From the NCBI GenBank assembly GCA_020833025.1, contig JAJHRB010000048.1, positions 1-11,687 on the forward strand: DNA of 11,687 bases, in the 5' to 3' direction. The notes beneath the pieces are model-generated. The model was not told the DNA's origin and did no database searches. It saw nothing but the letters and a program-made list of their open reading frames with translations. Made by a program: the position numbers and the translations under genes. The first letter of the stretch is position 1; each line of letters opens with the position of its first letter. The DNA comes from Thermoproteaceae archaeon (GTDB lineage Archaea > Thermoproteota > Thermoprotei > Thermoproteales > Thermoproteaceae). Shown one piece after another: positions 492-11,422 of the stretch.

Positions 492-579
492 GCCGGGGTG
501 GCCGAGCGGCCCAAGGCGCGGGCCTGCTAAGCCCGTCCCCGTTGAGGGGGCCCGGGTTCAAATCCCGGCCCCGGCGCCA
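492..579 (+). tRNA. tRNA-Ser(GCT), intronless, CCA encoded; integration target
   Basis: Folded by hand: acceptor GCCGGGG (492-498) / CCCCGGC (569-575), D arm, anticodon stem CGGGC/GCCCG with loop CTGCTAA (GCT at 526-528), long variable arm CCCC-GTTGA-GGGG, T arm CCGGG-TTCAAAT-CCCGG, discriminator G576, CCA 577-579. Confidence 0.97.
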
Positions 580-602
580 GCCCCTCTTGACACATATCAA
601 GT
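520..602 (+). repeat. Left attachment site (direct repeat copy 1)
   Basis: 520-580 is identical to 11340-11400 (61 bp). After 2 mismatches (CC vs TT), 583-602 is identical to 11403-11422 (20 bp). Confidence 0.95.
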
Positions 603-2001: not shown

Positions 2002-2294
2002 CCGCGCCGGCGCAGGCAAGGGGCGCTGGGAGCGCCAGAGCTGGCGGCGCCCCGCCGCCGGGCGATGGGAATTATTTAAGCGTGTTGGCCGTGAGGAAGC
2101 TGAACGGCATCACGCTGCCCGTCATAACGTGTCTTGGTGACAGTGTGATGACAGTGCACCGCACGCCTCCCGCAATTGTCAGAAAGATACTTGACGAGGA
2201 GCCAATTGAAGTTGACAAACATGCAATCTTCTTCGACGAAATTGAAAAGATCAAACGCTGCACGGGCAAGAGAGTTGTCATAAGGCTGCCATGA
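1998..2294 (+). CDS. Hypothetical protein (98 aa)
   Basis: C-terminal part of ORF 1677..2294 starting at ATG 1998. It has ATGA overlaps with both the upstream and downstream genes, and the C-terminal ~70 aa look globular. Confidence 0.7.
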   Translation: MTAPAQARGAGSARAGGAPPPGDGNYLSVLAVRKLNGITLPVITCLGDSVMTVHRTPPAIVRKILDEEPIEVDKHAIFFDEIEKIKRCTGKRVVIRLP

Positions 2295-5200
2295 GTGCAG
2301 TTGAAAGCAGCTGTCTGAAAGACCTCAAGGCGCCGCACTTCGCCGCGGGCGAGAGGGCAGTCGTCGTCACGCGGAGCGGCAAGTACTACGAGGTGCGGAT
2401 CGTGGACGCGCGCGACTGTCGCGTCATTGAGATCGTCGCGCAGACGAGGAGCCTGGCGTCGGGGTCGGTCGAGAAGGCGCTGCGCCGTGCAGGCCTCTCG
2501 GCGGAGGACATCGCGAAATTCCTCGACTGGGCAAGGGGGCTCGGGCAGGCCAGGGGCAGAGGGAAGGAGGAGGTCGCGAGACTGCTCAAGGAGGTGATCG
2601 ACGGCGCGAGGAGGGCGCTGGCGGGAGATTTGAGCACGCCGCACTTGAACGTCCTGATACCGAAGCGCGACAAGACGACCGTCACGGGGTGCCGCCCGGC
2701 GGAGTGCTGGCAGCGCGCCAACGCCGCGGCGGTCAGGCCTAGGGACATAGATCCAGATCTGGCAATTCTCGACTTCGACTCGGAGAGGGCGCTGGCAGCG
2801 GCCGCGCGGCTCGGCTTTGACCCCAATAAGCACATGCACATCCTGGCAGGCCCTGCCGTTGACGGCGCCGTTCTCACGCCGGAGGGGCTGTGGAGGCTGC
2901 CGGACGGCCGCGTCCTCGAGCGGGTCCCGCGCAGGATCCACCTGCCCGTGTACGTTCCTGGCGGCTGCAAGAGAGACTTGCGGGCGCCCGGACTCGAGGT
3001 AAAGTGCAAGACGCCCGTGAACATTGCGGGGAGGCACCCCTCTGGCGCCGAGTACGAGCTCGTCGACGGCGAGCTCCTGGAGGCCAGCTGGCGGGCAATT
3101 AAGGATCTCGTCGCGGAGCTCGGGGGAGACCTGCCCGGCTACGAGAGACCGCCAGAGTGCAGCGAGGAAAGAGCGGTGGACGTAGACGAGCTGGCAGGGC
3201 TCTTCGGCCGCGTATACGCGCTGGCGCACCTCGCGGGCTGCCCGCGCCACGACGCGATTTACGACCTGGCAATCCTGGGCCGCTTCGCTTGCGTCAAGAG
3301 GGAGGTTATTGAGGAGGTCGTCAGGCGCGTTTACGGGAGCGCGGGGGAGGAGTCGCAGACGCTGTCCCAGAGACTCAATCACGTCGAGAGGGCATACCGC
3401 GCCGTCCCGCCGGGGTCCGGAGAGCCGGGCCCGAAGCTCAAGTCGCCGGAGAAGATACTGGAGGCGTGGTACAAGATCGACAGGGAGGCCGCAGAGATGA
3501 TCGCAAAAATTTTGAACATCGGTCTTCACCGCGCCCCGGCAGCCGAGTGTCTTGAGTTCTACATGAATATTTGCGAAAGGCGGGTGGTCGCCCGCCCCGC
3601 AGAGGACAGCAGGATTTACGTCCTTATCGAGAGCTATCACTGCAAGGAGATCGTGAACAAGAAGACCTGGGAGGTCGAGAAAAAGATCTGCGGTTACTTC
3701 CACAAGGCGGTGATTTACCACGGCCCCAAGCCGCGCAGGGTTTACGACGTGACGCGGCAGATGTGGTACTACGAAATTGGCGGCTATTACGGTACGGACC
3801 TGCGCGCGGTCGTCGAGAAGCTGAGAAAGGCGTCGGCAGGCGAGCCGATGTACATCAGCTCTAAGCACCTCGACGAGCTGATTGCGATTTTCCAGAAGGT
3901 GGCCGACAGGCATGAAGTGGCCCTTGCCGTCGGCATCCTCCCCGCCGAGAGCGGGGCCGCGCTGGTGGACGACCACGGCATTCTCGACACGGGGCCCTCG
4001 CCTGAGGACGCAGTCGCCGACCTCGAGAGGGCGCTGAGATCCGTCCTGAAAGTCTACCCGCCCGAGAATCATGACGCCGCGCTCGCGTCTGCGGGCTACG
4101 TCCTGGCCCTGAACGCAGCGCCCGTCTGGTGGTTCCACAAGCCCAACGCCGAGGTGCCGCTCCCGATAATTCACGGCGAGTCCGGTCTCGGCAAGTCCGA
4201 GCTGATGCGGAGGGTGGTAGAGCTGGCGGTCATAGGCCTGGAGGCGAGAAGGAGAATCGTGGAGATACGGAAGAAGATCGTCGACGAGCAGATAGCGGAG
4301 TACCTCGCGCCGGAGGTGTACAAGGCCACGGAGTATTTTTCGGCCGAGCAGTTCCGCAACGACCTAGACGCCAACCCGCTCGTTCTAATAGTGGACGAGC
4401 AGAGGCCCGGCGACCCGAGGAGCGAGAGGGCCCCCGCCAAGATCTACGGCCGCTTCTGGCTCCAGGTATCGACGGCAGAGTGGGGCAGAAGGCTCGCCCA
4501 GCACGCCTCGAGATACGGCGGAGGGTTCGGCTACAAGTTCTTCCGGCAGAGGGCATTTGCCATCGTAACGAACTACCCCCCCGAGAAGTGGAAGCGCGCG
4601 GGCCTCGCGTTGGGGGCCAGCGCCGAGGGCGCCGTGGATCGCCGCATTTTCGAGATCCCCTGGGAGAACGTCAAGCTCGACGGCACCAAGCTGGACAAGA
4701 TGTACACGCCGCGCTACTCGGTGCTGGGCGCCCTCGTGCACGTAATTAACAAGCACTTCCGGGAGCTGATCTCTGCGGGCAAGTTCGCGGACTTCGCGAT
4801 AAAGCTATGGCTGAAAGTCGCCGAGGAGTTCGAGCCCAGGCTGGGCCGGCTGGAGGGCATACGGAGGATGGCAGAGGCGTTAGAAAAGCTCAAGCGCTAC
4901 AATGAGGAGCGGCTTGCCCTCCGCGACCCGGTCACGGCGGCGAGGGAGGAGCTCCGGCGCAACGCGCTGGAGTACTTGAGGGAGGAGGCAAAAGTGCCCG
5001 ACCTGAGCCCTGCCAGGCTCGCGGTTAAGGTGATCGAGTACGCGCAGGAGCTGGGGCTGGTGTTTCGCAAGCCAAAATGGGCAGACGAGGTTGACAGGGT
5101 TCGCGAGGACTTCTGCAGGGCGCTTGCAGCCGCGGTCGGCGTTCCGGACTACGACTGCAGCACGTTCGTGACGACAAGGGTGGAGGAGTACAAGACGCCG

Positions 5201-5887
5201 GCAGAGGCGCCGCTCTTCAACCTCATTGCCGACAGGGAGCTGCGGGAGGCGCTCTGGCGCGTCTTCGTGGACTACGCGGCCAGGGGATACGTCCCCTCAG
5301 TTCTGGCGGGGAGCGTGCTCTGGCCGAAGAACACCAGAGCGCTCGGGAAGATTCCCAGAACGCCGTGGAAACGCCCGGACGGAACCGTCGAGTGCTATTA
5401 TAAACTGAGCTGGCAGGAGTTCTTCGAGACCTTTGTCGGCAGGCTCTTCATTGCCGAGGAGGAGACACATGCTGAAGAAACAGCTACCTCCCCGGCGCCC
5501 GGTGTTGAGCGTGTTGAGTTTCCGAAGCCCTTGACAGGCGTTGGGGAACAAGCGACAAATATCGAAACCGCCCCGCCGAGCGGTGTCAATATAAGTAAAG
5601 CGCAAAGCGAACTCAACACGCTCAACACGCTCAACACGCTCAACACCGCCCCCCGGGACACACTAACAGAAAAGGACATGCACGCACATCATGGAGGCAG
5701 AATTGAGCGGTGCAAGGCGAACATAATTTGCTGGAACCGCTTGCAGGTCTGCATCTGGCGGTCACTGAGAGGCACCCCGGAGGAGAAGAAAAAGCTTGCT
5801 GCCGAGGAGCTGGAGAGACGCGGCGAGCTGTTTTACAAGTGTCTCGCAGACGCCGAGGAGTACGCCGAGAGGGAGTCGGGGGCGTGA
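2291..5887 (+). CDS. Replication protein: PrimPol (AEP superfamily) + PriCT-like helical domain + SF3 helicase
   Basis: PrimPol-like motifs: LNVLIPKRDK, LAILDFD (2771-2779), KHMHIL (2831-2839), GLEVK...HPSGAEY. PriCT-like segment: GCPRHDAIYDLA...VERAY. SF3 motifs: Walker A GESGLGKS (4175-4198), Walker B VLIVDE, motif C IVTN, arginine finger AVDRRIFEIPW. Confidence 0.88.
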   Translation: MSAVESSCLKDLKAPHFAAGERAVVVTRSGKYYEVRIVDARDCRVIEIVAQTRSLASGSVEKALRRAGLSAEDIAKFLDWARGLGQARGRGKEEVARLLKEVIDGARRALAGDLSTPHLNVLIPKRDKTTVTGCRPAECWQRANAAAVRPRDIDPDLAILDFDSERALAAAARLGFDPNKHMHILAGPAVDGAVLTPEGLWRLPDGRVLERVPRRIHLPVYVPGGCKRDLRAPGLEVKCKTPVNIAGRHPSGAEYELVDGELLEASWRAIKDLVAELGGDLPGYERPPECSEERAVDVDELAGLFGRVYALAHLAGCPRHDAIYDLAILGRFACVKREVIEEVVRRVYGSAGEESQTLSQRLNHVERAYRAVPPGSGEPGPKLKSPEKILEAWYKIDREAAEMIAKILNIGLHRAPAAECLEFYMNICERRVVARPAEDSRIYVLIESYHCKEIVNKKTWEVEKKICGYFHKAVIYHGPKPRRVYDVTRQMWYYEIGGYYGTDLRAVVEKLRKASAGEPMYISSKHLDELIAIFQKVADRHEVALAVGILPAESGAALVDDHGILDTGPSPEDAVADLERALRSVLKVYPPENHDAALASAGYVLALNAAPVWWFHKPNAEVPLPIIHGESGLGKSELMRRVVELAVIGLEARRRIVEIRKKIVDEQIAEYLAPEVYKATEYFSAEQFRNDLDANPLVLIVDEQRPGDPRSERAPAKIYGRFWLQVSTAEWGRRLAQHASRYGGGFGYKFFRQRAFAIVTNYPPEKWKRAGLALGASAEGAVDRRIFEIPWENVKLDGTKLDKMYTPRYSVLGALVHVINKHFRELISAGKFADFAIKLWLKVAEEFEPRLGRLEGIRRMAEALEKLKRYNEERLALRDPVTAAREELRRNALEYLREEAKVPDLSPARLAVKVIEYAQELGLVFRKPKWADEVDRVREDFCRALAAAVGVPDYDCSTFVTTRVEEYKTPAEAPLFNLIADRELREALWRVFVDYAARGYVPSVLAGSVLWPKNTRALGKIPRTPWKRPDGTVECYYKLSWQEFFETFVGRLFIAEEETHAEETATSPAPGVERVEFPKPLTGVGEQATNIETAPPSGVNISKAQSELNTLNTLNTLNTAPRDTLTEKDMHAHHGGRIERCKANIICWNRLQVCIWRSLRGTPEEKKKLAAEELERRGELFYKCLADAEEYAERESGA
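5500..5648. repeat. Origin-like module 1 inside the 3' end of rep
   Basis: GTGTTGAG x2 (5502-5518), a 93-bp core, then CTCAACAC x4 at 9-bp period (5612-5647). 5502-5520 and 5610-5628 form a perfect 19-bp inverted repeat. The right arm encodes LNTLNTLNTLNT. Confidence 0.8.
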
Positions 5888-8000
5888 TCTACCTCGGCGG
5901 CGTCAAGTTCTGGGACGGGGAGCGGGTCAGGGCCTTCTGGCCGTACTTCTACGTCATCTCGACGGGGCGCGTCCCCGGCGCGGAGAGGACCGACCTGAAC
6001 GCCCGCTGCTGGGACGGCACGGGCTACAGGGAGTGTCCCGGCAGGGTCTACGCCGCGCGCGCGCGCGGCACCCCGCGGAGGTCAGGGAGCTCAGGGAGAA
6101 GTACGCCAAGTATGGCAAGGTGTCGCAGGCGCGCATCCTCTTCGTTTTCAGGTACTCCGTGGACACGGGCAGGCCCCCGCTGGTCTTCGCGAGAGATGAG
6201 CGCGAGCTGGCTGACAGCATGGAGAGACGGGTCCCGAGGTACGCTGTCGTGGACGTGGAGGTGGTCAACGGCAGGGTGCTGTACGGCTGGGCCCTCCCCG
6301 GCGGCGGGGTGAAAATATCGGACAATATCCTTGATCTGTACGCCGACCTGGAGAAGGTGAACCTCGTCGTCGGCTACAACCTTGCCGGCTTTGACTACAA
6401 GTACCTCGGCGGCACGCAGCTCTACATAGACGCCGGGAAGCCCGTCGGCATTGTCGACCTCTTCGACTTCGCGACGGGCGGCTGGCGCTCCTCGCTGGGC
6501 GTCGGCGAGGAGGCATACTCGCTGCACGAGGTGGTCAGGCAGGTCGGGCCCCCGCCGGAGATCGACATGCGCGAGTGGGTCAAGGCCAAGATGCGGCGCG
6601 GCTGGCTGGCGGGAGAGGAGCTGAGGCGCTACCTGGAGTGGGACGTCCTCGCGACTCTCCGTCTCGCGGAGGCGTGGCTTCCCGTGCTCGCGGCGCTGGG
6701 ATCCCTGGCTGGAGTCCCGCTCCACCTGCTCTGGGTCTCCGCGCGGAGCGCGTCGCCGGGCAGTCTCCACGAGGCGATGCTGGCCAGGCTGACCGTCGAG
6801 AGGGGGTACGTCCTCGAGGACAGGAGGCGCGAGCGCTCGTTCGGCGGGGAGAAGGTCGTCCTCAGGAGGTGCGGCCTGTTCCGCAGGGTTGCCGAGTACG
6901 ACTTCCACATGCTGTACCCCACGGCGTATTACGAGCTCGGCGTTGACCCCATAGAGGCGTACGAGTGCCAGAACGGCTTCCGCGGCGCCGGGAAGACCGT
7001 GTGCTTCAGGCAGGGCGACGCCTACGCCTACCTCGCCAGGGTGTACAAGGCAAGGGAGATAACGAAGAAAATGGGCGACAAGGCGCTGGACCAGGCCGTC
7101 AAGATCGTGGCCAACTCCGCCTACGGCGTGCTGGCAAAGCCCGAGGGCTACGGTCTCAACGAGCACGCCTCCGCCGTGATCTTCAACGAGACGGGGGCCC
7201 TCTTCGAGAGACTGGTGGATAAAATGCGCGCCATATACGGCGACACGGACTCCGTCTACGTCCCGCTCGCCAGCGACCCCTACCCCGACGATCACGTCAC
7301 GGCCGTGGCGCAGGGCACCGCCAGGGAGCTGTGGGGGGACAAGATGCTGTACGGCGGGATCCACTTCCGCCTCAAGCTCGAGGGGGTCTGGGACGTCTTC
7401 ATCTACGAGAAGAAGAACTATATCAAGTGGAACGAGAGTAAAATCGAGACCAGAGGCGCGGTCTTCAAGCCGAACCAGCTCCCCGCCGGCTGGAAGTACG
7501 GCGACTGGCGCCGGCTTCTCGTGGAGTTCGCGGAGGGGAGGAAGTGCTGGCTGGAGGAGCTCCGGAAGCTGCCGCCGGAAGACGCCATGCTGGAGACGTC
7601 CATCGACCTCGCCGACTTCTTCACGACAACGAGAGGAGAGGACATCAAGGCGCTTGACCTGCGGCGGCTGCCCGTCCTCGCGAGACTCCTCGTGGAGTCT
7701 GGCGGCACGGCCTACGCGCTGAGAAGGGGCGAGCGCGGCATTGTTGACGCCCGCTACCTCTTCATCAGCCGCGGCTTGAAGAGCCTGTCGCTGATCGTCC
7801 ACGCGGCCGGGGGGCTCTTCCGCGTCGACGTGTCGAGGGCGGAGCTCCGGAAGGACGGGAGGGGCAGGCCGGTCGCCGCGGAAATTGCCGGTACGTACAG
7901 GCCGCTCGAGAGCGCGGAGACAGTCTACGAGGCGGCCGCGGCCACTTACACCCACCTGAGGGGAGTGTTCGGGGACTGCAGGCGGGCCAGACTGGCGTGA
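5884..8000 (+). CDS. polB: Family B DNA polymerase with 3'-5' exonuclease (~704 aa if repaired), frameshifted at ~6054-6074
   Basis: The GTG start overlaps the rep stop (GTGA 5884-5887). The N-terminal FWPYFYV segment is in the 5710 frame and everything from HPAEVRELREK onward is in the 5796 frame. Exo I VVDVE, Exo II GYNLAGFD, Exo III YLEWD. Pol motifs DFHMLYPT, KIVANSAYG, YGDTDS, KKNY. Confidence 0.92.
6054..6067. repeat. (CG)7 microsatellite at the polB frameshift
   Basis: CGCGCGCGCGCGCG is read directly. Removing one CG joins the two frames as VYAARARHPAEV. Confidence 0.85.
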
Positions 8001-8086
8001 CGGGCTGGAATCACGGCCGTGACCCCAGCGCTCGGCTCTGCCTCCGGGCGCGCGCATGTGCTTTCTCTAGTCTCCATGCCCGGTAC

Positions 8087-8237
8087 CCGGTGGTTAGTGT
8101 GGTGAGCGTGTTGAGTCTCCGAAGCCCTTGGCAGATATTGAAAAACGGGCGACAAATGTCGAAACCGCTCTCCCAGCTGGCATCAACTCAAGTAAAGCGC
8201 AAAGGGGACTAACCACACTCACCACACTAACCACCGG
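8087..8237. repeat. Origin-like module 2 (diverged direct-repeat copy of module 1)
   Basis: GTGGTTAG/GTGGTGAG/GTGTTGAG, a 93-bp core, then CTAACCAC/CTCACCAC/CTAACCAC. 8087-8106 and 8218-8237 form a perfect 20-bp inverted repeat. It aligns ungapped to module 1 at offset 2597 (103/136 identical by hand count). Confidence 0.8.
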
Positions 8238-8310
8238 CCGCCGTGGAGCTGGCCGCGGTTGTTCTTCCATTGTGCGCTTGCCGCCTGGCGGCTGCGGGCC
8301 GGCGCGCGCC

Positions 8311-8342
8311 TTTTCAATAATCAAAATAAGTATTAAATACTT
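8311..8342. promoter_or_regulatory. AT-rich island (possible unwinding element, or BRE/TATA promoter)
   Basis: 26 of 30 bases at 8311-8340 are A/T in an otherwise GC-rich element. It contains AAAATAAG-TATTAAATA, but no obvious downstream ORF. Confidence 0.4.
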
Positions 8343-8816
8343 CGCGGCGGCGAGGGCGGTGTGGGCTGACCGGTGCTGACCTCCTCCGCGCGGACGGCGC
8401 GCGGCTAGGGGGGGCCGCGGCCGGCCGCAGCGTCACGATCCCGAGCATCCCCAGAACCCGCCAGAGGGACTCGGCGGCGCCGCGCGGGCTCCCGGCCGCG
8501 ACGATGATCGCCTCGCACCTCAGCGCCGTGAGCCGCTCCGGACATCTGTTCTCGCTGCACCACTCGCGCAGCTCGCTTAGCGGCGCCCCGGCCAGCCACG
8601 CGCCTGCGCGCGCCTGACCAGAACCGGCAGCGGCCTGCCGCTCGCGCTGTAGAGCCTGGCGCTCGCGCCCTCGGGCAGCAGGCGCTCGAGGTCGTCAATT
8701 GGGACCAGGCTGGGCGCGGCTGGCTCTCGCGGGGCGCGTAATAGAGTTCTGCCGCGCTGGCGCCGCACCGCAACGGCCCGGTTCGTGCGCGGCGTGCCAT
8801 AAGGGCGGGCAGACAT
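8314..8816 (-). pseudogene. Probable frameshifted orphan gene
   Basis: The protein-like segment LVPIDDLERLLPEGASARLYSASGRPLPVLVRR (8577..8816 frame) continues after a -1/+2 shift at ~8599-8613 into a start-less open frame WLAGAPLSELREWCSENRCPERLTALRCEAIIVAAGSPRGAAESLWRVLGMLGIVTLRP, which stops at 8316-8314. The start (8816 or 8800) is uncertain. Confidence 0.4.
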
Positions 8817-8842: not shown

Positions 8843-9472
8843 ATGCTGAGGCTCGTCGCCTACGTCAGGGTGTCGAGAGAGGACGAGCGCCCGGAGAACC
8901 AGGAGTTTGCAATCTACAAGTGGGGCGCCGAGAGGGGCCACCGGGTAGTCGAGGTCGTGAGGGGCGCCGGCGCCTCCGGCGCCCTGCCGCCGGCAGAGAG
9001 ACCGGGCTGGCAAAAGGCCGTACAGCTACTGGAGCGGGCTGACGGCATTGTCGTGCACGCGCTCGACCGCATTGCCAGATCGCTGTGGGACCTGGCCAGC
9101 GTGGCGAGAGAGCTGGAGGCCAGGGGCAAGCTTCTGGTGAGCGTCCGCGAGGAGTGGCTGCAAGACGTGGACCCCAAAATCAGACAGTTGATTGTCGCCG
9201 TGCTGGGCTGGGCGGCAGAGATAGAGCGCGAGTTCATCCGCGAGAGGACGCGCGAGGCGCTGGCCAGGCTGAGGGCAATGGGCAGGCGCGTGGGCAGGCC
9301 CCCGAAGTGGAGCGAGACAATACGCCGCCGCATAATCGACCTCGTGAGGAGGGGCATCACGCTGAGAGATGCCTGCAGGCTGGCCGGCGTGGGGTACAGG
9401 ACGGCGCTCAGATACTTGTCGAGAGACCCGGAGTACCTCAAGGCGAGGGCCGAGGCGAGGCTCAAGGGCTGA
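8843..9472 (+). CDS. Small serine recombinase (resolvase/invertase family) with C-terminal HTH
   Basis: Catalytic YVRVS, LDRIARS, helix E AEIEREFIRERTREAL, GRPPK minor-groove arm, and C-terminal HTH GITLRDACRLAGVGYRTALRYL. Confidence 0.93.
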   Translation: MLRLVAYVRVSREDERPENQEFAIYKWGAERGHRVVEVVRGAGASGALPPAERPGWQKAVQLLERADGIVVHALDRIARSLWDLASVARELEARGKLLVSVREEWLQDVDPKIRQLIVAVLGWAAEIEREFIRERTREALARLRAMGRRVGRPPKWSETIRRRIIDLVRRGITLRDACRLAGVGYRTALRYLSRDPEYLKARAEARLKG

Positions 9473-10054: not shown

Positions 10055-11284
10055 TTAGGGGAAGACCCTAGGCGCGTGCTGTTCAAACACGGCGCGGAGG
10101 CGGCGCTCGTAGTCGGCTATATAGTGCTCTACGGTCACGGCGAGACCGCCTGGCAGCGAGCGGCCCTGAAGCACGGCGATGTCCGCGACGTCGACGCCGC
10201 GGTCCAGCAGCCACTGCGCGAAGAACTTGCGCAGCAGTCTCGGCTCGAGCCACGGGAGCCCCGCGCGCTCCCGCGCCTCCTTGAGCCACCTGTAGACCGT
10301 CAGCTCCTGGCACGGGAACAGCCTCTCGGTGCTGAGCTGAAGCTGCCGGCAGAATTTCTCCCTCCAGGGCAGGTAGACCTCCTTGAGGTACTTCACCGCG
10401 CCCTCGGTGAGGAACACGAGCGGCTGCCTCTTCGGGCCCTCCGTCTCTCCGAGGAGCAGGCGCCTTTTCTCCAGCTGCAGGCCGTCGAGCCTCGCCCTCA
10501 GCAGGTGGTCCAGCCTGACGCCGGTCTCCGCCATGATGCCCCACACCGCGGCGGCGCACGGCGAGATTTTGTGCGCCTCCTCCCACACGCGTCTCACCTC
10601 CTCTAGCGTCGGGACGCGGAAGCTGTTCCTCGCCCTGCTCTGGACCGTCTTGAAGCTGTCGTAGAGCAGCGAGGCGAGCTGCGGGTCCTTCACGCGCACC
10701 ACGGTGTCGATAAAGCGCTTTAATGCGACGGCGGTCTTCCCCGTCACGCGCGGGCGCTCTATCGTGTACACGCGCTGCAGGGTCTCCGGCGACAGGACCC
10801 AGCCCACCATGTCGAGGAACCTGACGAGGTACCTCACGTAGTAGTTGACGGTGTCGCGGGACACGCCCTCGGCGATCAGCTTCCCGCGGAAGAGCTCCAC
10901 GTCCTCGCGCTCGACCCTGTAGGCTATCTCGCGCCTCACCTGGCCCGGCAGGAGCTTCGACAGCTCGTCGATGACGTAGTCGCGGTACTTCTTGGCGCGC
11001 AGCGCCTTTGCGATGACGCTGATGGCCTGCACTATGTCAATTTCATTAATAGGCGGCTCGGGCAGGCACCTCTCCACCGTCTCCGGCATCGCGCTGTAGA
11101 GACGCTCCAGCTTATCCGCCTGAGGCGCCGCCCTGCCGGAAAGCCAGGCGTGGACGGTGCTCGGGTTCACGCCGGCGGCTCTGGCGATATCGCTCAGCGA
11201 GAGGCCCAGCTCTCTGAGACACGCTATAATGCCGCGCCGCTGCTCGTCGCTCAGCCTGAGCCAGTACGGATTTTGGACGCTCAT
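10055..11284 (-). CDS. int: Tyrosine integrase with N-terminal XRE-type HTH
   Basis: N-terminal LRELGLSLSDIARAAGVNPSTVHAWLSG (XRE HTH). Catalytic ETGVR, GPKRQ, RLLRKFFA, LQGR, EHY. It starts 55 nt inside the right att repeat. Confidence 0.92.
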   Translation of the reverse strand: MSVQNPYWLRLSDEQRRGIIACLRELGLSLSDIARAAGVNPSTVHAWLSGRAAPQADKLERLYSAMPETVERCLPEPPINEIDIVQAISVIAKALRAKKYRDYVIDELSKLLPGQVRREIAYRVEREDVELFRGKLIAEGVSRDTVNYYVRYLVRFLDMVGWVLSPETLQRVYTIERPRVTGKTAVALKRFIDTVVRVKDPQLASLLYDSFKTVQSRARNSFRVPTLEEVRRVWEEAHKISPCAAAVWGIMAETGVRLDHLLRARLDGLQLEKRRLLLGETEGPKRQPLVFLTEGAVKYLKEVYLPWREKFCRQLQLSTERLFPCQELTVYRWLKEARERAGLPWLEPRLLRKFFAQWLLDRGVDVADIAVLQGRSLPGGLAVTVEHYIADYERRLRAVFEQHAPRVFP

Positions 11285-11339: not shown

Positions 11340-11422
11340 GGGCCTGCTAAGCCCGTCCCCGTTGAGGGGGCCCGGGTTCAAATCCCGGCCCCGGCGCCAG
11401 TTCCTCTTGACACATATCAAGT
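11340..11422 (+). repeat. Right attachment site (3' tRNA-Ser fragment plus trailer)
   Basis: Copy of 520-602 lacking the first 28 nt of the tRNA, so it cannot fold into a tRNA. Confidence 0.95.

Follow-up and report, generated by a model that had tools for sequence, protein, structure and literature searches.

A candidate replication origin within the rep coding sequence of an integrated element from Thermoproteaceae

The stretch of DNA considered here, referred to as the window, is a whole 11.7-kb contig (C12; 11,687 nt) from an archaeal metagenome-assembled genome (MAG) of the Thermoproteaceae. It carries an integrated element whose replication gene, rep, contains an inverted-repeat module (M1), with a related copy (M2) placed beyond the neighbouring DNA polymerase gene, polB. 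The closest described counterparts are found in the plasmid pRN1, in Staphylococcus aureus pathogenicity islands (SaPI) and in the lambdoid origin. The origin of pRN1 is a stem-loop of ca. 100 nt (21-nt stem, 58-nt loop) located 54 bp 3' of orf904, and it is the only requirement in cis besides the rep operon (PMC4234260). The pRN1 family has kept the structure of the origin but not its sequence, and replication can be rescued through a compensatory change in the stem (PMC4234260). The pRN1 primase starts at GTG, a triplet not essential for pRN1 replication; an earlier note on this DNA had cited the stem-loop near the rep 3' end and the GTG of the primase, both correctly (PMC4234260). In SaPIs, the origin consists of 6–12 iterons directly after rep, half of them on each side of a central region and in opposite orientation, which are bound by the C-terminal winged helix of Rep, with one hexamer thought to load per side (PMC9371898). 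The lambdoid origin, lastly, is found midway along gene O, and O proteins gain residues from additional iterons (PMC7466680).

The M1/M2 family is here read as a candidate replication origin embedded in the rep coding sequence, to which a probability of about 0.5 is given. This reading arises from the studied origins of relatives of Rep, which resemble the module and lie just 3' of rep. The earlier note had already regarded the modules as origin-like, a view which is plausible and has been strengthened by their linkage to Rep in 26 of 26 loci, by co-variation of the arms and by constraint on synonymous sites. M1 would be the resident copy, predicted to be translated as a linker between the helicase C-terminal domain and a Cys domain.

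The module and its place in rep

The rep gene and the two modules of the window are laid out as follows.

2291-5887, forward strand: rep, 1198 amino acids, with a primase-polymerase (PrimPol)-like N-terminal part, a helicase and C-terminal domain resembling Cch and SaPI Rep, a module-encoded linker and a C-terminal Cys domain
5491-5657, forward strand: whole inverted repeat of M1, in frame and without a stop within the rep open reading frame (ORF) 2291-5887, translated ...GVERVEFPKPL...SELNTLNTLNTLNT...
5502-5518, forward strand: left arm of M1, two GTGTTGAG units at 9-bp spacing (5502-5509, 5511-5518)
5527-5603, forward strand: inner boxes of M1, GCCCTTGAC at 5527-5535 and GTAAAGCGC at 5595-5603, around the conserved 59-nt centre 5536-5594
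5612-5646, forward strand: right arm of M1, four CTCAACAC units read as four times Leu-Asn-Thr
5678-5884, forward strand: Cys domain of Rep (C-x5/6-C-x6-C...C), encoded directly 3' of the module in every family member
8087-8237, forward strand: M2, a non-coding copy oriented as M1, with left units 8090-8097, 8099-8106 and 8108-8115, right units 8209-8216, 8218-8225 and 8227-8234, and centre 8133-8191

M1 and M2 form the top direct repeat of the window, 5502-5637 against 8099-8234, over 136 nt at 76% identity, ungapped and with a spacing of 2597, and the pair has an E of 1e-22 in a BLAST search of the whole MAG. Both have a core of 93 bp (5519-5611 in M1, 8116-8208 in M2), both keep the blocks TCCGAAGCCCTTG and AAGTAAAGCGCAAAG, and both possess perfect inverted repeats, of 19 bp in M1 (5500-5518/5630-5648) and 20 bp in M2 (8087-8106/8218-8237), within an extended symmetry covering 5491-5657 (28 nt, 89%) and 8087-8237 (43 nt, 81%), respectively. 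Alignment, core length, shared blocks and perfect arms had all been reported in the earlier note and were confirmed. Two features had escaped it, namely the in-frame position of M1 inside the rep ORF and the existence of a third copy, M3, on contig C115 of the same MAG.

The arms are built from short units. M1 contains two units on the left and four on the right, of the CTCAACAC type, and M2 contains three on each side, of the CTAACCAC/CTCACCAC types with the exception of the inner-left unit, which is of the M1 type; the frame equivalent to that of M1 is closed in M2 by a TAG at 8095-8097. The same element is found at 99–99.7% identity in a metagenome contig, L106 (JGI 3300045883 contig Ga0496349_000918, 1-16733), in which the right arm of M1 has three units and differs from that of the window by exactly one 9-bp unit, equal to three residues. 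Single-strand folding compared with shuffled sequences gave z -4.3 for M1 and z -5.0 for M2 (0 of 200 shuffles), with values of -4.3 to -6.3 for the modules overall. The core is 52% GC as opposed to 64–67% in the flanking genes, about 12–14 points lower, and the module cores of relatives average 50% against 58% in their flanks; this lower GC content fits the origin reading, as a relative enrichment only.

Relatives were collected through alignment of Rep, giving 31 loci which were searched with a profile built from the modules and of which 26 cover the module region. All 26 harbour one to three tandem modules at the same site, in a stop-free ORF of more than 2.4 kb, and every Rep homologue reads through a module-like peptide (...PLT.LE.QATNIET...SQ.QS.L-x-T L-x-T L-x-T...) before a small Cys domain. 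The consensus arms consist of units spaced 9 bp, or three codons, apart, GTGNNKAR on the left and YTMNNCAC on the right, with the central NN varying between elements; owing to the 9-bp unit, each right-arm unit is read as Leu-x-Thr. Inside the arrays are an inner box GCNCTTGAC, a centre containing GACAAATATCGAAAC and a further inner box GTCAAGNGC followed by AAAGCG, the centre measuring 59 nt in nearly all modules. Two to four units per arm are present in M1, M2 and relatives. Where a gene contains two or three modules, the full 3-unit arrays are outermost and match each other across 370–450 bp. The number of modules spans 1–3 inside rep and 0–2 elsewhere, it being common for an element to have several, and four relatives having extra non-coding modules within a 560-bp intergenic region 3' of the integrase gene, ca. 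100 bp after it.

The family was reached only via the Rep protein. Searching the DNA of 60 related genomes returned zero modules, exact-pattern scans with conserved module blocks found nothing in the genome or metagenome contig sets, and the matches to module blocks in viral contigs were dismissed as chance matches in unrelated coding DNA. This distribution bears on whether the module is a selfish palindromic insertion, similar to a miniature inverted-repeat transposable element (MITE) or a foldback element, or else a neutral hypervariable repeat in a disordered linker with a symmetry produced by slippage and conversion. The arms do resemble terminal inverted repeats, one to three copies occur per gene in addition to the extra copies, the number of units is polymorphic and Reps of the type encoded on C115 normally lack a module. 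Dispersed host copies, named in the earlier note as the sign of a MITE, are however absent, the three copies in the MAG all lying within two elements and none being present in the 60 related genomes. No target-site duplications are evident at M1 or M2, the position is orthologous in 26 of 26 loci even though the Reps are only 55–60% identical, and a centre so strongly conserved, third codon positions included, is unexpected for neutral DNA, which together make such an insertion or neutral repeat very unlikely.

Selection on the module and its proposed mode of action

Conservation of the core follows a pattern different from that of the remaining gene. Among 21 non-redundant genes, the mean pairwise difference at codon positions 1, 2 and 3 is 0.18, 0.15 and 0.475 in the Rep body, and 0.25, 0.20 and 0.29 in the module core, with invariant third positions in the GACAAATATCGAAAC and AGTCAAG.GCAAAGCG blocks. 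The constrained synonymous sites of the core imply that selection acts on the nucleic acid, either DNA or RNA, and not on the peptide. M1, M2 and M3 share a 1-nt deletion beside the left arm, as a result of which the left arm of M1 is read as R-V-E in place of the V-x-N of relatives, with the GTGNNKAR pattern kept, and the same conserved blocks are retained by non-coding copies with stop codons. A purely protein feature, in which the module encodes a repeat-containing linker peptide and the DNA symmetry is incidental, would account for a module that is always in frame and for the conserved peptide pattern PLT.LE.QATNIET...SQ.QS.L-x-T. It is nevertheless highly improbable, considering that conservation at third codon positions matches that at the other two, that the arms are co-varying reverse complements, that family members use two different frames to read the left arm and that the motifs persist in copies interrupted by stops.

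At least seven types of unit were distinguished, each of them present on both arms.

left GTGTTGAG, right CTCAACAC
left GTGGTTAG, right CTAACCAC
left GTGCTTAA, right TTAAGCAC
left GTGTCTAA, right TTAGACAC; one-base variant, left GTGCCTAA, right TTAGGCAC
left GTGCATAA, right TTATGCAC
left GTGGGTAA, right TTACCCAC
left GTGGTGAA, right TTCACCAC

Complementarity between arms amounts to 94% within a module compared with 74% across modules, a value as high being reached in 1 of 10000 permutations. In an alignment of 12 sequences, 82% of cells pair as opposed to 30–41% in slid controls, change has occurred on both sides in 16 of 26 arm pairs, and the covariation score is 0.268 versus 0.153 for shuffled data (reached by 0 of 500 shuffles). 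The co-variation which the earlier note described for two copies is therefore real, according to both the permutation and the covariation tests, and extends across the whole module family. Variant units are not always placed at mirrored positions (L074), and the mismatches of the stem show no G.U bias on the sense strand (G.T 7, A.C 5), observations somewhat easier to reconcile with protein-binding repeats or with conversion between the arms than with a strict RNA stem.

The same data need to be considered in terms of a structured RNA in the rep-polB transcript, whose long hairpin and conserved 59-nt loop would control translation, processing or stability. It might, for instance, determine how much Rep is made with its Cys domain and how much without it, or govern the coupling to polB, and the extra copies would then be elements of 3' or 5' untranslated regions, or small RNA genes. 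Constraint on synonymous sites, a co-varying stem with a conserved loop and the orientation of M1 and M2, which is that of the rep-polB genes, are all in keeping with such an element. An RNA stem, on the other hand, does not need periodic 9-bp units, and the missing G.U bias and the variant units found on both arms without strict mirroring speak against it, as do several extra-ORF copies with inverted arms and an unflipped centre, which would change the loop presented. Rfam has no match to the module, the tRNA being its sole match in the window. An RNA element is consequently considered unlikely.

The Rep protein has ca. 40 homologues at 55–60% identity from hot-spring metagenomes, some of the homologues being proteins named "Pyrobaculum sp." and "Thermoproteus sp.", and has no family match in sequence searches of Pfam, PHROGs or PDB. 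AlphaFold models of residues 105-470 (predicted local distance difference test, pLDDT, 74.5) and 540-1060 (pLDDT 73) were compared by Foldseek and VIA. The top match of residues 105-470 is the PrimPol of pRN1 (3m1m, Z 5.5; 1rni, Z 5.4), with 122–123 residues at a root-mean-square deviation of 3.4 and 17% identity, a weak match that ranks first in both Foldseek (E 3.9e-3) and VIA. Residues 540-1060 match SCCmec Cch best (5dgk_B, Z 11.7, 240 residues aligned), followed by SaPIbov1 Rep (8tch_A, Z 9.4, 277 residues), the latter over model range 5-511 and spanning the C-terminal domain; all remaining structure matches have Z of 6 or less. The likeness to Cch and SaPI Rep is thus predicted at the level of the fold alone, with no sequence similarity. 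In one relative (L080, ca. 5500-5515), a 2-nt deletion just 3' of the third module ends Rep ahead of the Cys domain and is either a natural variant or a sequencing error.

Should the module be an origin, the C-terminal domain of Rep would bind the repeat arrays on both sides in opposite orientation, and two helicase rings would be assembled there, enclosing either the centre with its lower GC content or the stem-loop of the module, as proposed for pRN1. The centre might then be melted, with the PrimPol domain providing a primer which PolB would extend. The variable NN would set the specificity between Rep and origin and hence the compatibility of co-resident elements. A more elaborate proposal, which is tentative and rather doubtful, envisages a dual-coded origin: the 9-bp units would serve at once as Rep-binding or stem elements and as linker codons, so that specificity, unit number and orientation of the centre could change through slippage, conversion between arms and flipping while the gene stays intact, resulting in a fast-evolving compatibility system in which M2 and M3 act as handles for replication in trans by the Rep of another element. 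Under such a handle function, C115 would carry M3 even though its own Rep family never has a module.

A number of observations weigh against the module being an origin. The GC content of the core is just moderately below that of its surroundings, the core not being AT-rich, and the resemblance to the PrimPol fold is weak (Z 5.5; Foldseek E 4e-3). Gene conversion from arm to arm could maintain the symmetry in the absence of selection, and the combination of synonymous constraint with a co-varying stem fits an RNA element equally well. A determinant in Rep that tracks the NN type was sought and none was established: a variable hairpin just 5' of the module (RT...YYK) does correlate with NN type in 21 sequences, a comparison confounded by linkage, and P0003, with an LPT-type hairpin and LTT-type modules, is a counter-example. 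Two types of unit also occur within one element in L071, L096 and the window itself, where five of the six M2 units differ from those of M1, such that the Rep of the window may not use M2.

The element, polB and the additional copies

The remaining features of the window are the following.

492-579, forward strand: tRNA-Ser(GCT) gene, identified by ARAGORN
520-602, forward strand: left attachment (att) repeat, attL, an 83-nt direct repeat that begins inside tRNA-Ser(GCT), 98% identical to 11340-11422
5884-8000, forward strand: polB, with a weak PF00136 match and PDB PolB matches, its GTG start overlapping the rep stop (GTGA)
7995-8310, forward strand: 316-bp unit made up of M2 and both its flanks, 91% shared with the sister element on C115 only and found nowhere else searched
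8843-9472, forward strand: small serine recombinase, a resolvase with a C-terminal helix-turn-helix (PF00239, E 4.6e-31; phrog_125)
10055-11284, reverse strand: tyrosine integrase with an N-terminal helix-turn-helix (PF00589, PF16795)
11340-11422, forward strand: attR, direct-repeat partner of 520-602, with the attP junction in contig L106

The host MAG comprises 1.56 Mb at 63% GC and is 94% complete. The 83-nt direct repeats 520-602 and 11340-11422 delimit a 10.8-kb element integrated in tRNA-Ser(GCT), with the gene order rep (2291-5887), polB (5884-8000), serine recombinase (8843-9472) and tyrosine integrase (10055-11284, minus strand). In L106 copies of the element are arranged head-to-tail with a period of 10,809 bp and one att junction (L106 ca. 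8230-8312), the flanks of which come from attR and attL; this arrangement is an excised circular episome or a tandem array. A head-to-tail assembly with a single att site is consistent with an excised circle, which fits the origin reading. GC skew of the 10.8-kb element tracks gene orientation and was uninformative. In the literature searched, this Rep-PolB family of integrative plasmids from Pyrobaculum/Thermoproteus, within the Thermoproteales, is apparently undescribed.

In the window, the first ca. 60 codons of polB lie in frame 1 and the rest in frame 3, with the break at a (CG)7 run near 6052-6066, whereas the polB of L106 has one CG fewer and is intact (704 amino acids), from which it follows that the frameshift is a natural variant or an assembly error and not the ancestral state. 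The gene is found (ca. 70% identity) directly 3' of rep in all 23 loci, out of the 31, that reach past the rep 3' end, and no module follows polB in any of these, 10 of which continue for 1 kb or more beyond the gene. Rep and polB are on this basis an ancestral pair, polB not having been captured as a cassette between two origins. The suggestion in the earlier note that polB may have entered through an exchange between two related replicons at their origin finds no support in these 23 loci; of the relatives with and without polB that it proposed to compare, this Rep family has none without the gene, and module number is unrelated to polB. Nor was any product of recombination between M1 and M2 found, an event that would delete the Cys domain and polB; identical stretches between the two do not exceed 15 nt.

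The position of M2 3' of polB is instead incidental and does not define the system. M2 forms part of the 316-bp unit located at the junction with the resolvase block, and M3 (C115 13335-13500) is 94% identical to it. The sister element occupies 6662-14647 of MAG contig C115 (L014), adjoins tRNA-Gly(GCC) and contains a different Rep of 979 amino acids, a PriL-like gene (PF04104) in place of polB and the same resolvase block. The DNA of the Cys domain (5678-5884) is 87.6% identical to the segment fused to the unrelated Rep on C115. Other members of the C115-type Rep family have neither Cys domain nor module, indicating that the Cys segment and M3 of C115 were apparently imported from an element of the window type. 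M2 is closest to M1, with which it has the 1-nt deletion and conserved blocks in common, and seems once to have been the in-ORF module of a related Rep and to have since become non-coding; a second or orphan origin is one conceivable role for it, titration of Rep another. A model of integron attC-like cassettes was rejected, the boundaries of the cargo swap between window and C115 (5875, 7995) being off the module ends.

The proximity of M2 and M3 to a resolvase gene introduces a further possibility, that of a res/hix-like site for recombination or inversion by the serine recombinase, or a site for the integrase, which would serve to resolve multimers, to invert the 59-nt centre or to exchange blocks of genes between elements. 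M2 and M3 are upstream of the resolvase gene, at ca. 150 bp in C115 and ca. 600 bp in the window after a 440-bp insertion, and the modules of four relatives follow the integrase gene by ca. 100 bp. Mosaic junctions coincide with modules (beyond the module P0004 and P0010 have the same sequence, but ahead of it they diverge, and C115 and the window become homologous right after M1), some copies have centre and arms in the reversed relative orientation, and several metagenome contigs end in modules. Such junctions and flips are, though, expected by-products of homologous recombination at the most conserved island of DNA or between inverted arms. Of eight loci with this resolvase, six (L076, L082, L088, L101, L104, L105) lack a module nearby, so that binding by the resolvase in place of Rep, which the earlier note had listed as a finding that would overturn its reading, is unlikely; one element that lacks a module has conserved a different stretch directly ahead of its resolvase gene, and no module was found upstream of the resolvase orthologues in other genomes. 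The integrase genes of L072, L073, L082, L088 and L091 likewise have no adjacent module, and the substrate of the integrase is already explained by the tRNA att repeat. Tandem 9-bp units are unlike the known res/hix sites, these being composed of paired 12–13-bp half-sites. Neither resolvase nor integrase consistently adjoins the module, while Rep does in 26 of 26 loci; the two recombinases are accordingly poor candidates for acting on it, and a recombination site is regarded as improbable.

Some additional observations concern these regions. In the non-coding modules of L077 (1497-1644), L096 (1790-1936), L098 (249-396) and L071 (1806-1943), the arms, the arm-proximal segments and a 25-nt flank form a near-perfect inverted copy of those of the in-ORF module (73 nt perfect in L077) around an unflipped centre, so that centre and arms stand in a flip-flop-like relation. 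The centre as an in-frame invertible switch was considered and discarded, given that a flip creates a stop in most in-ORF modules (not in M1) and that flips were seen only in non-coding copies. The insertion of ca. 440 bp between M2 and the resolvase gene (8311-8752), defined relative to C115, has a core (8395-8710) that recurs at 83–85% identity on MAG contigs C43, C126 and C104 and could be a small sequence of repeated or mobile nature. For the small serine recombinase, a paralogue at 33–40% identity is distributed class-wide, in 26 of 28 and 28 of 31 genomes of the two main families searched, usually with one match per genome, and apparently belongs to the conserved genes of the chromosome and not to a mobile element. 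Contigs C17, C19, C69, C102, C78 and C35 of the MAG (G000) contain more integrase paralogues (up to 76% DNA identity) together with tRNA-Ser-like att fragments, which means that the MAG holds several related integrated elements or remnants. Positions 1-127 of the window are identical to 16092-16218 of C100, meaning that contig C12 continues C100, a host flank with an ABC transporter.

Very few origins of crenarchaeal plasmids or integrated elements have been defined, and the module offers a concrete, testable candidate which, if true, would add an archaeal example of an initiator gene whose coding sequence contains the origin. Natural variants are at hand, in the form of at least seven unit types, copy-number variants and an element joined head-to-tail via a single att site. 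These would be useful for understanding origin choice by a self-loading helicase at about 100 degrees C, as well as the ways in which elements that share a host evade or make use of one another's replication machinery. The view of polB as a cassette captured between two origins is corrected at the same time.

Comparison with described origins and recombination sites

Resemblance to res/hix sites is limited to the location of M2 and M3 upstream of a resolvase-type gene and to their inverted repeats, and differs in that adjacency of module and recombinase is not conserved in relatives.

With the lambdoid origin the module shares a layout in which repeats lie within the gene of the initiator, here a presumed one, and are translated into a linker, where variants in unit number alter residues (here 9 bp, or three residues). 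Lambda, in contrast, has 4–6 direct iterons of 18–19 bp, to which O binds with its N-terminal domain and which adjoin an AT-rich tract, as opposed to the inverted 9-bp arrays found here; its origin has neither inverted arrays nor a long stem-loop, and O is unrelated to this Rep.

The likeness to SaPI and staphylococcal cassette chromosome mec (SCCmec) elements includes a predicted helicase fold with a C-terminal domain, at least two short repeats per side in opposite orientation around a centre, placement of the repeats directly after the helicase domains and a specificity that differs between elements. These bacterial systems have iterons of 5–6 bp and a truly AT-rich centre, unlike the 9-bp repeats and 52% GC centre seen here, and their origin is intergenic, whereas M1 and all 26 orthologous modules are inside an ORF and are followed by the Cys domain.

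As in pRN1, a stem-loop (ca. 100–150 nt) with a loop of ca. 58–59 nt lies at the 3' side of rep, the structure of the stem is kept while its sequence varies, and GTG/CAC motifs are present in the stem. For the N-terminal part of Rep, the best if weak structural match is the PrimPol of pRN1 ORF904. Unlike pRN1, the module is inside the rep ORF and translated, its stem is made of periodic 9-bp units and the sequence of the loop is conserved. The Rep itself has no sequence homology to that of pRN1, its helicase resembles Cch and SaPI Rep with no clear superfamily 3 (SF3) match, and the element has its own PolB and integrates in tRNA genes. As a candidate origin the module would be of a known kind, a stem-loop or iteron origin beside a rep helicase, and what would be new here is dual coding inside rep.

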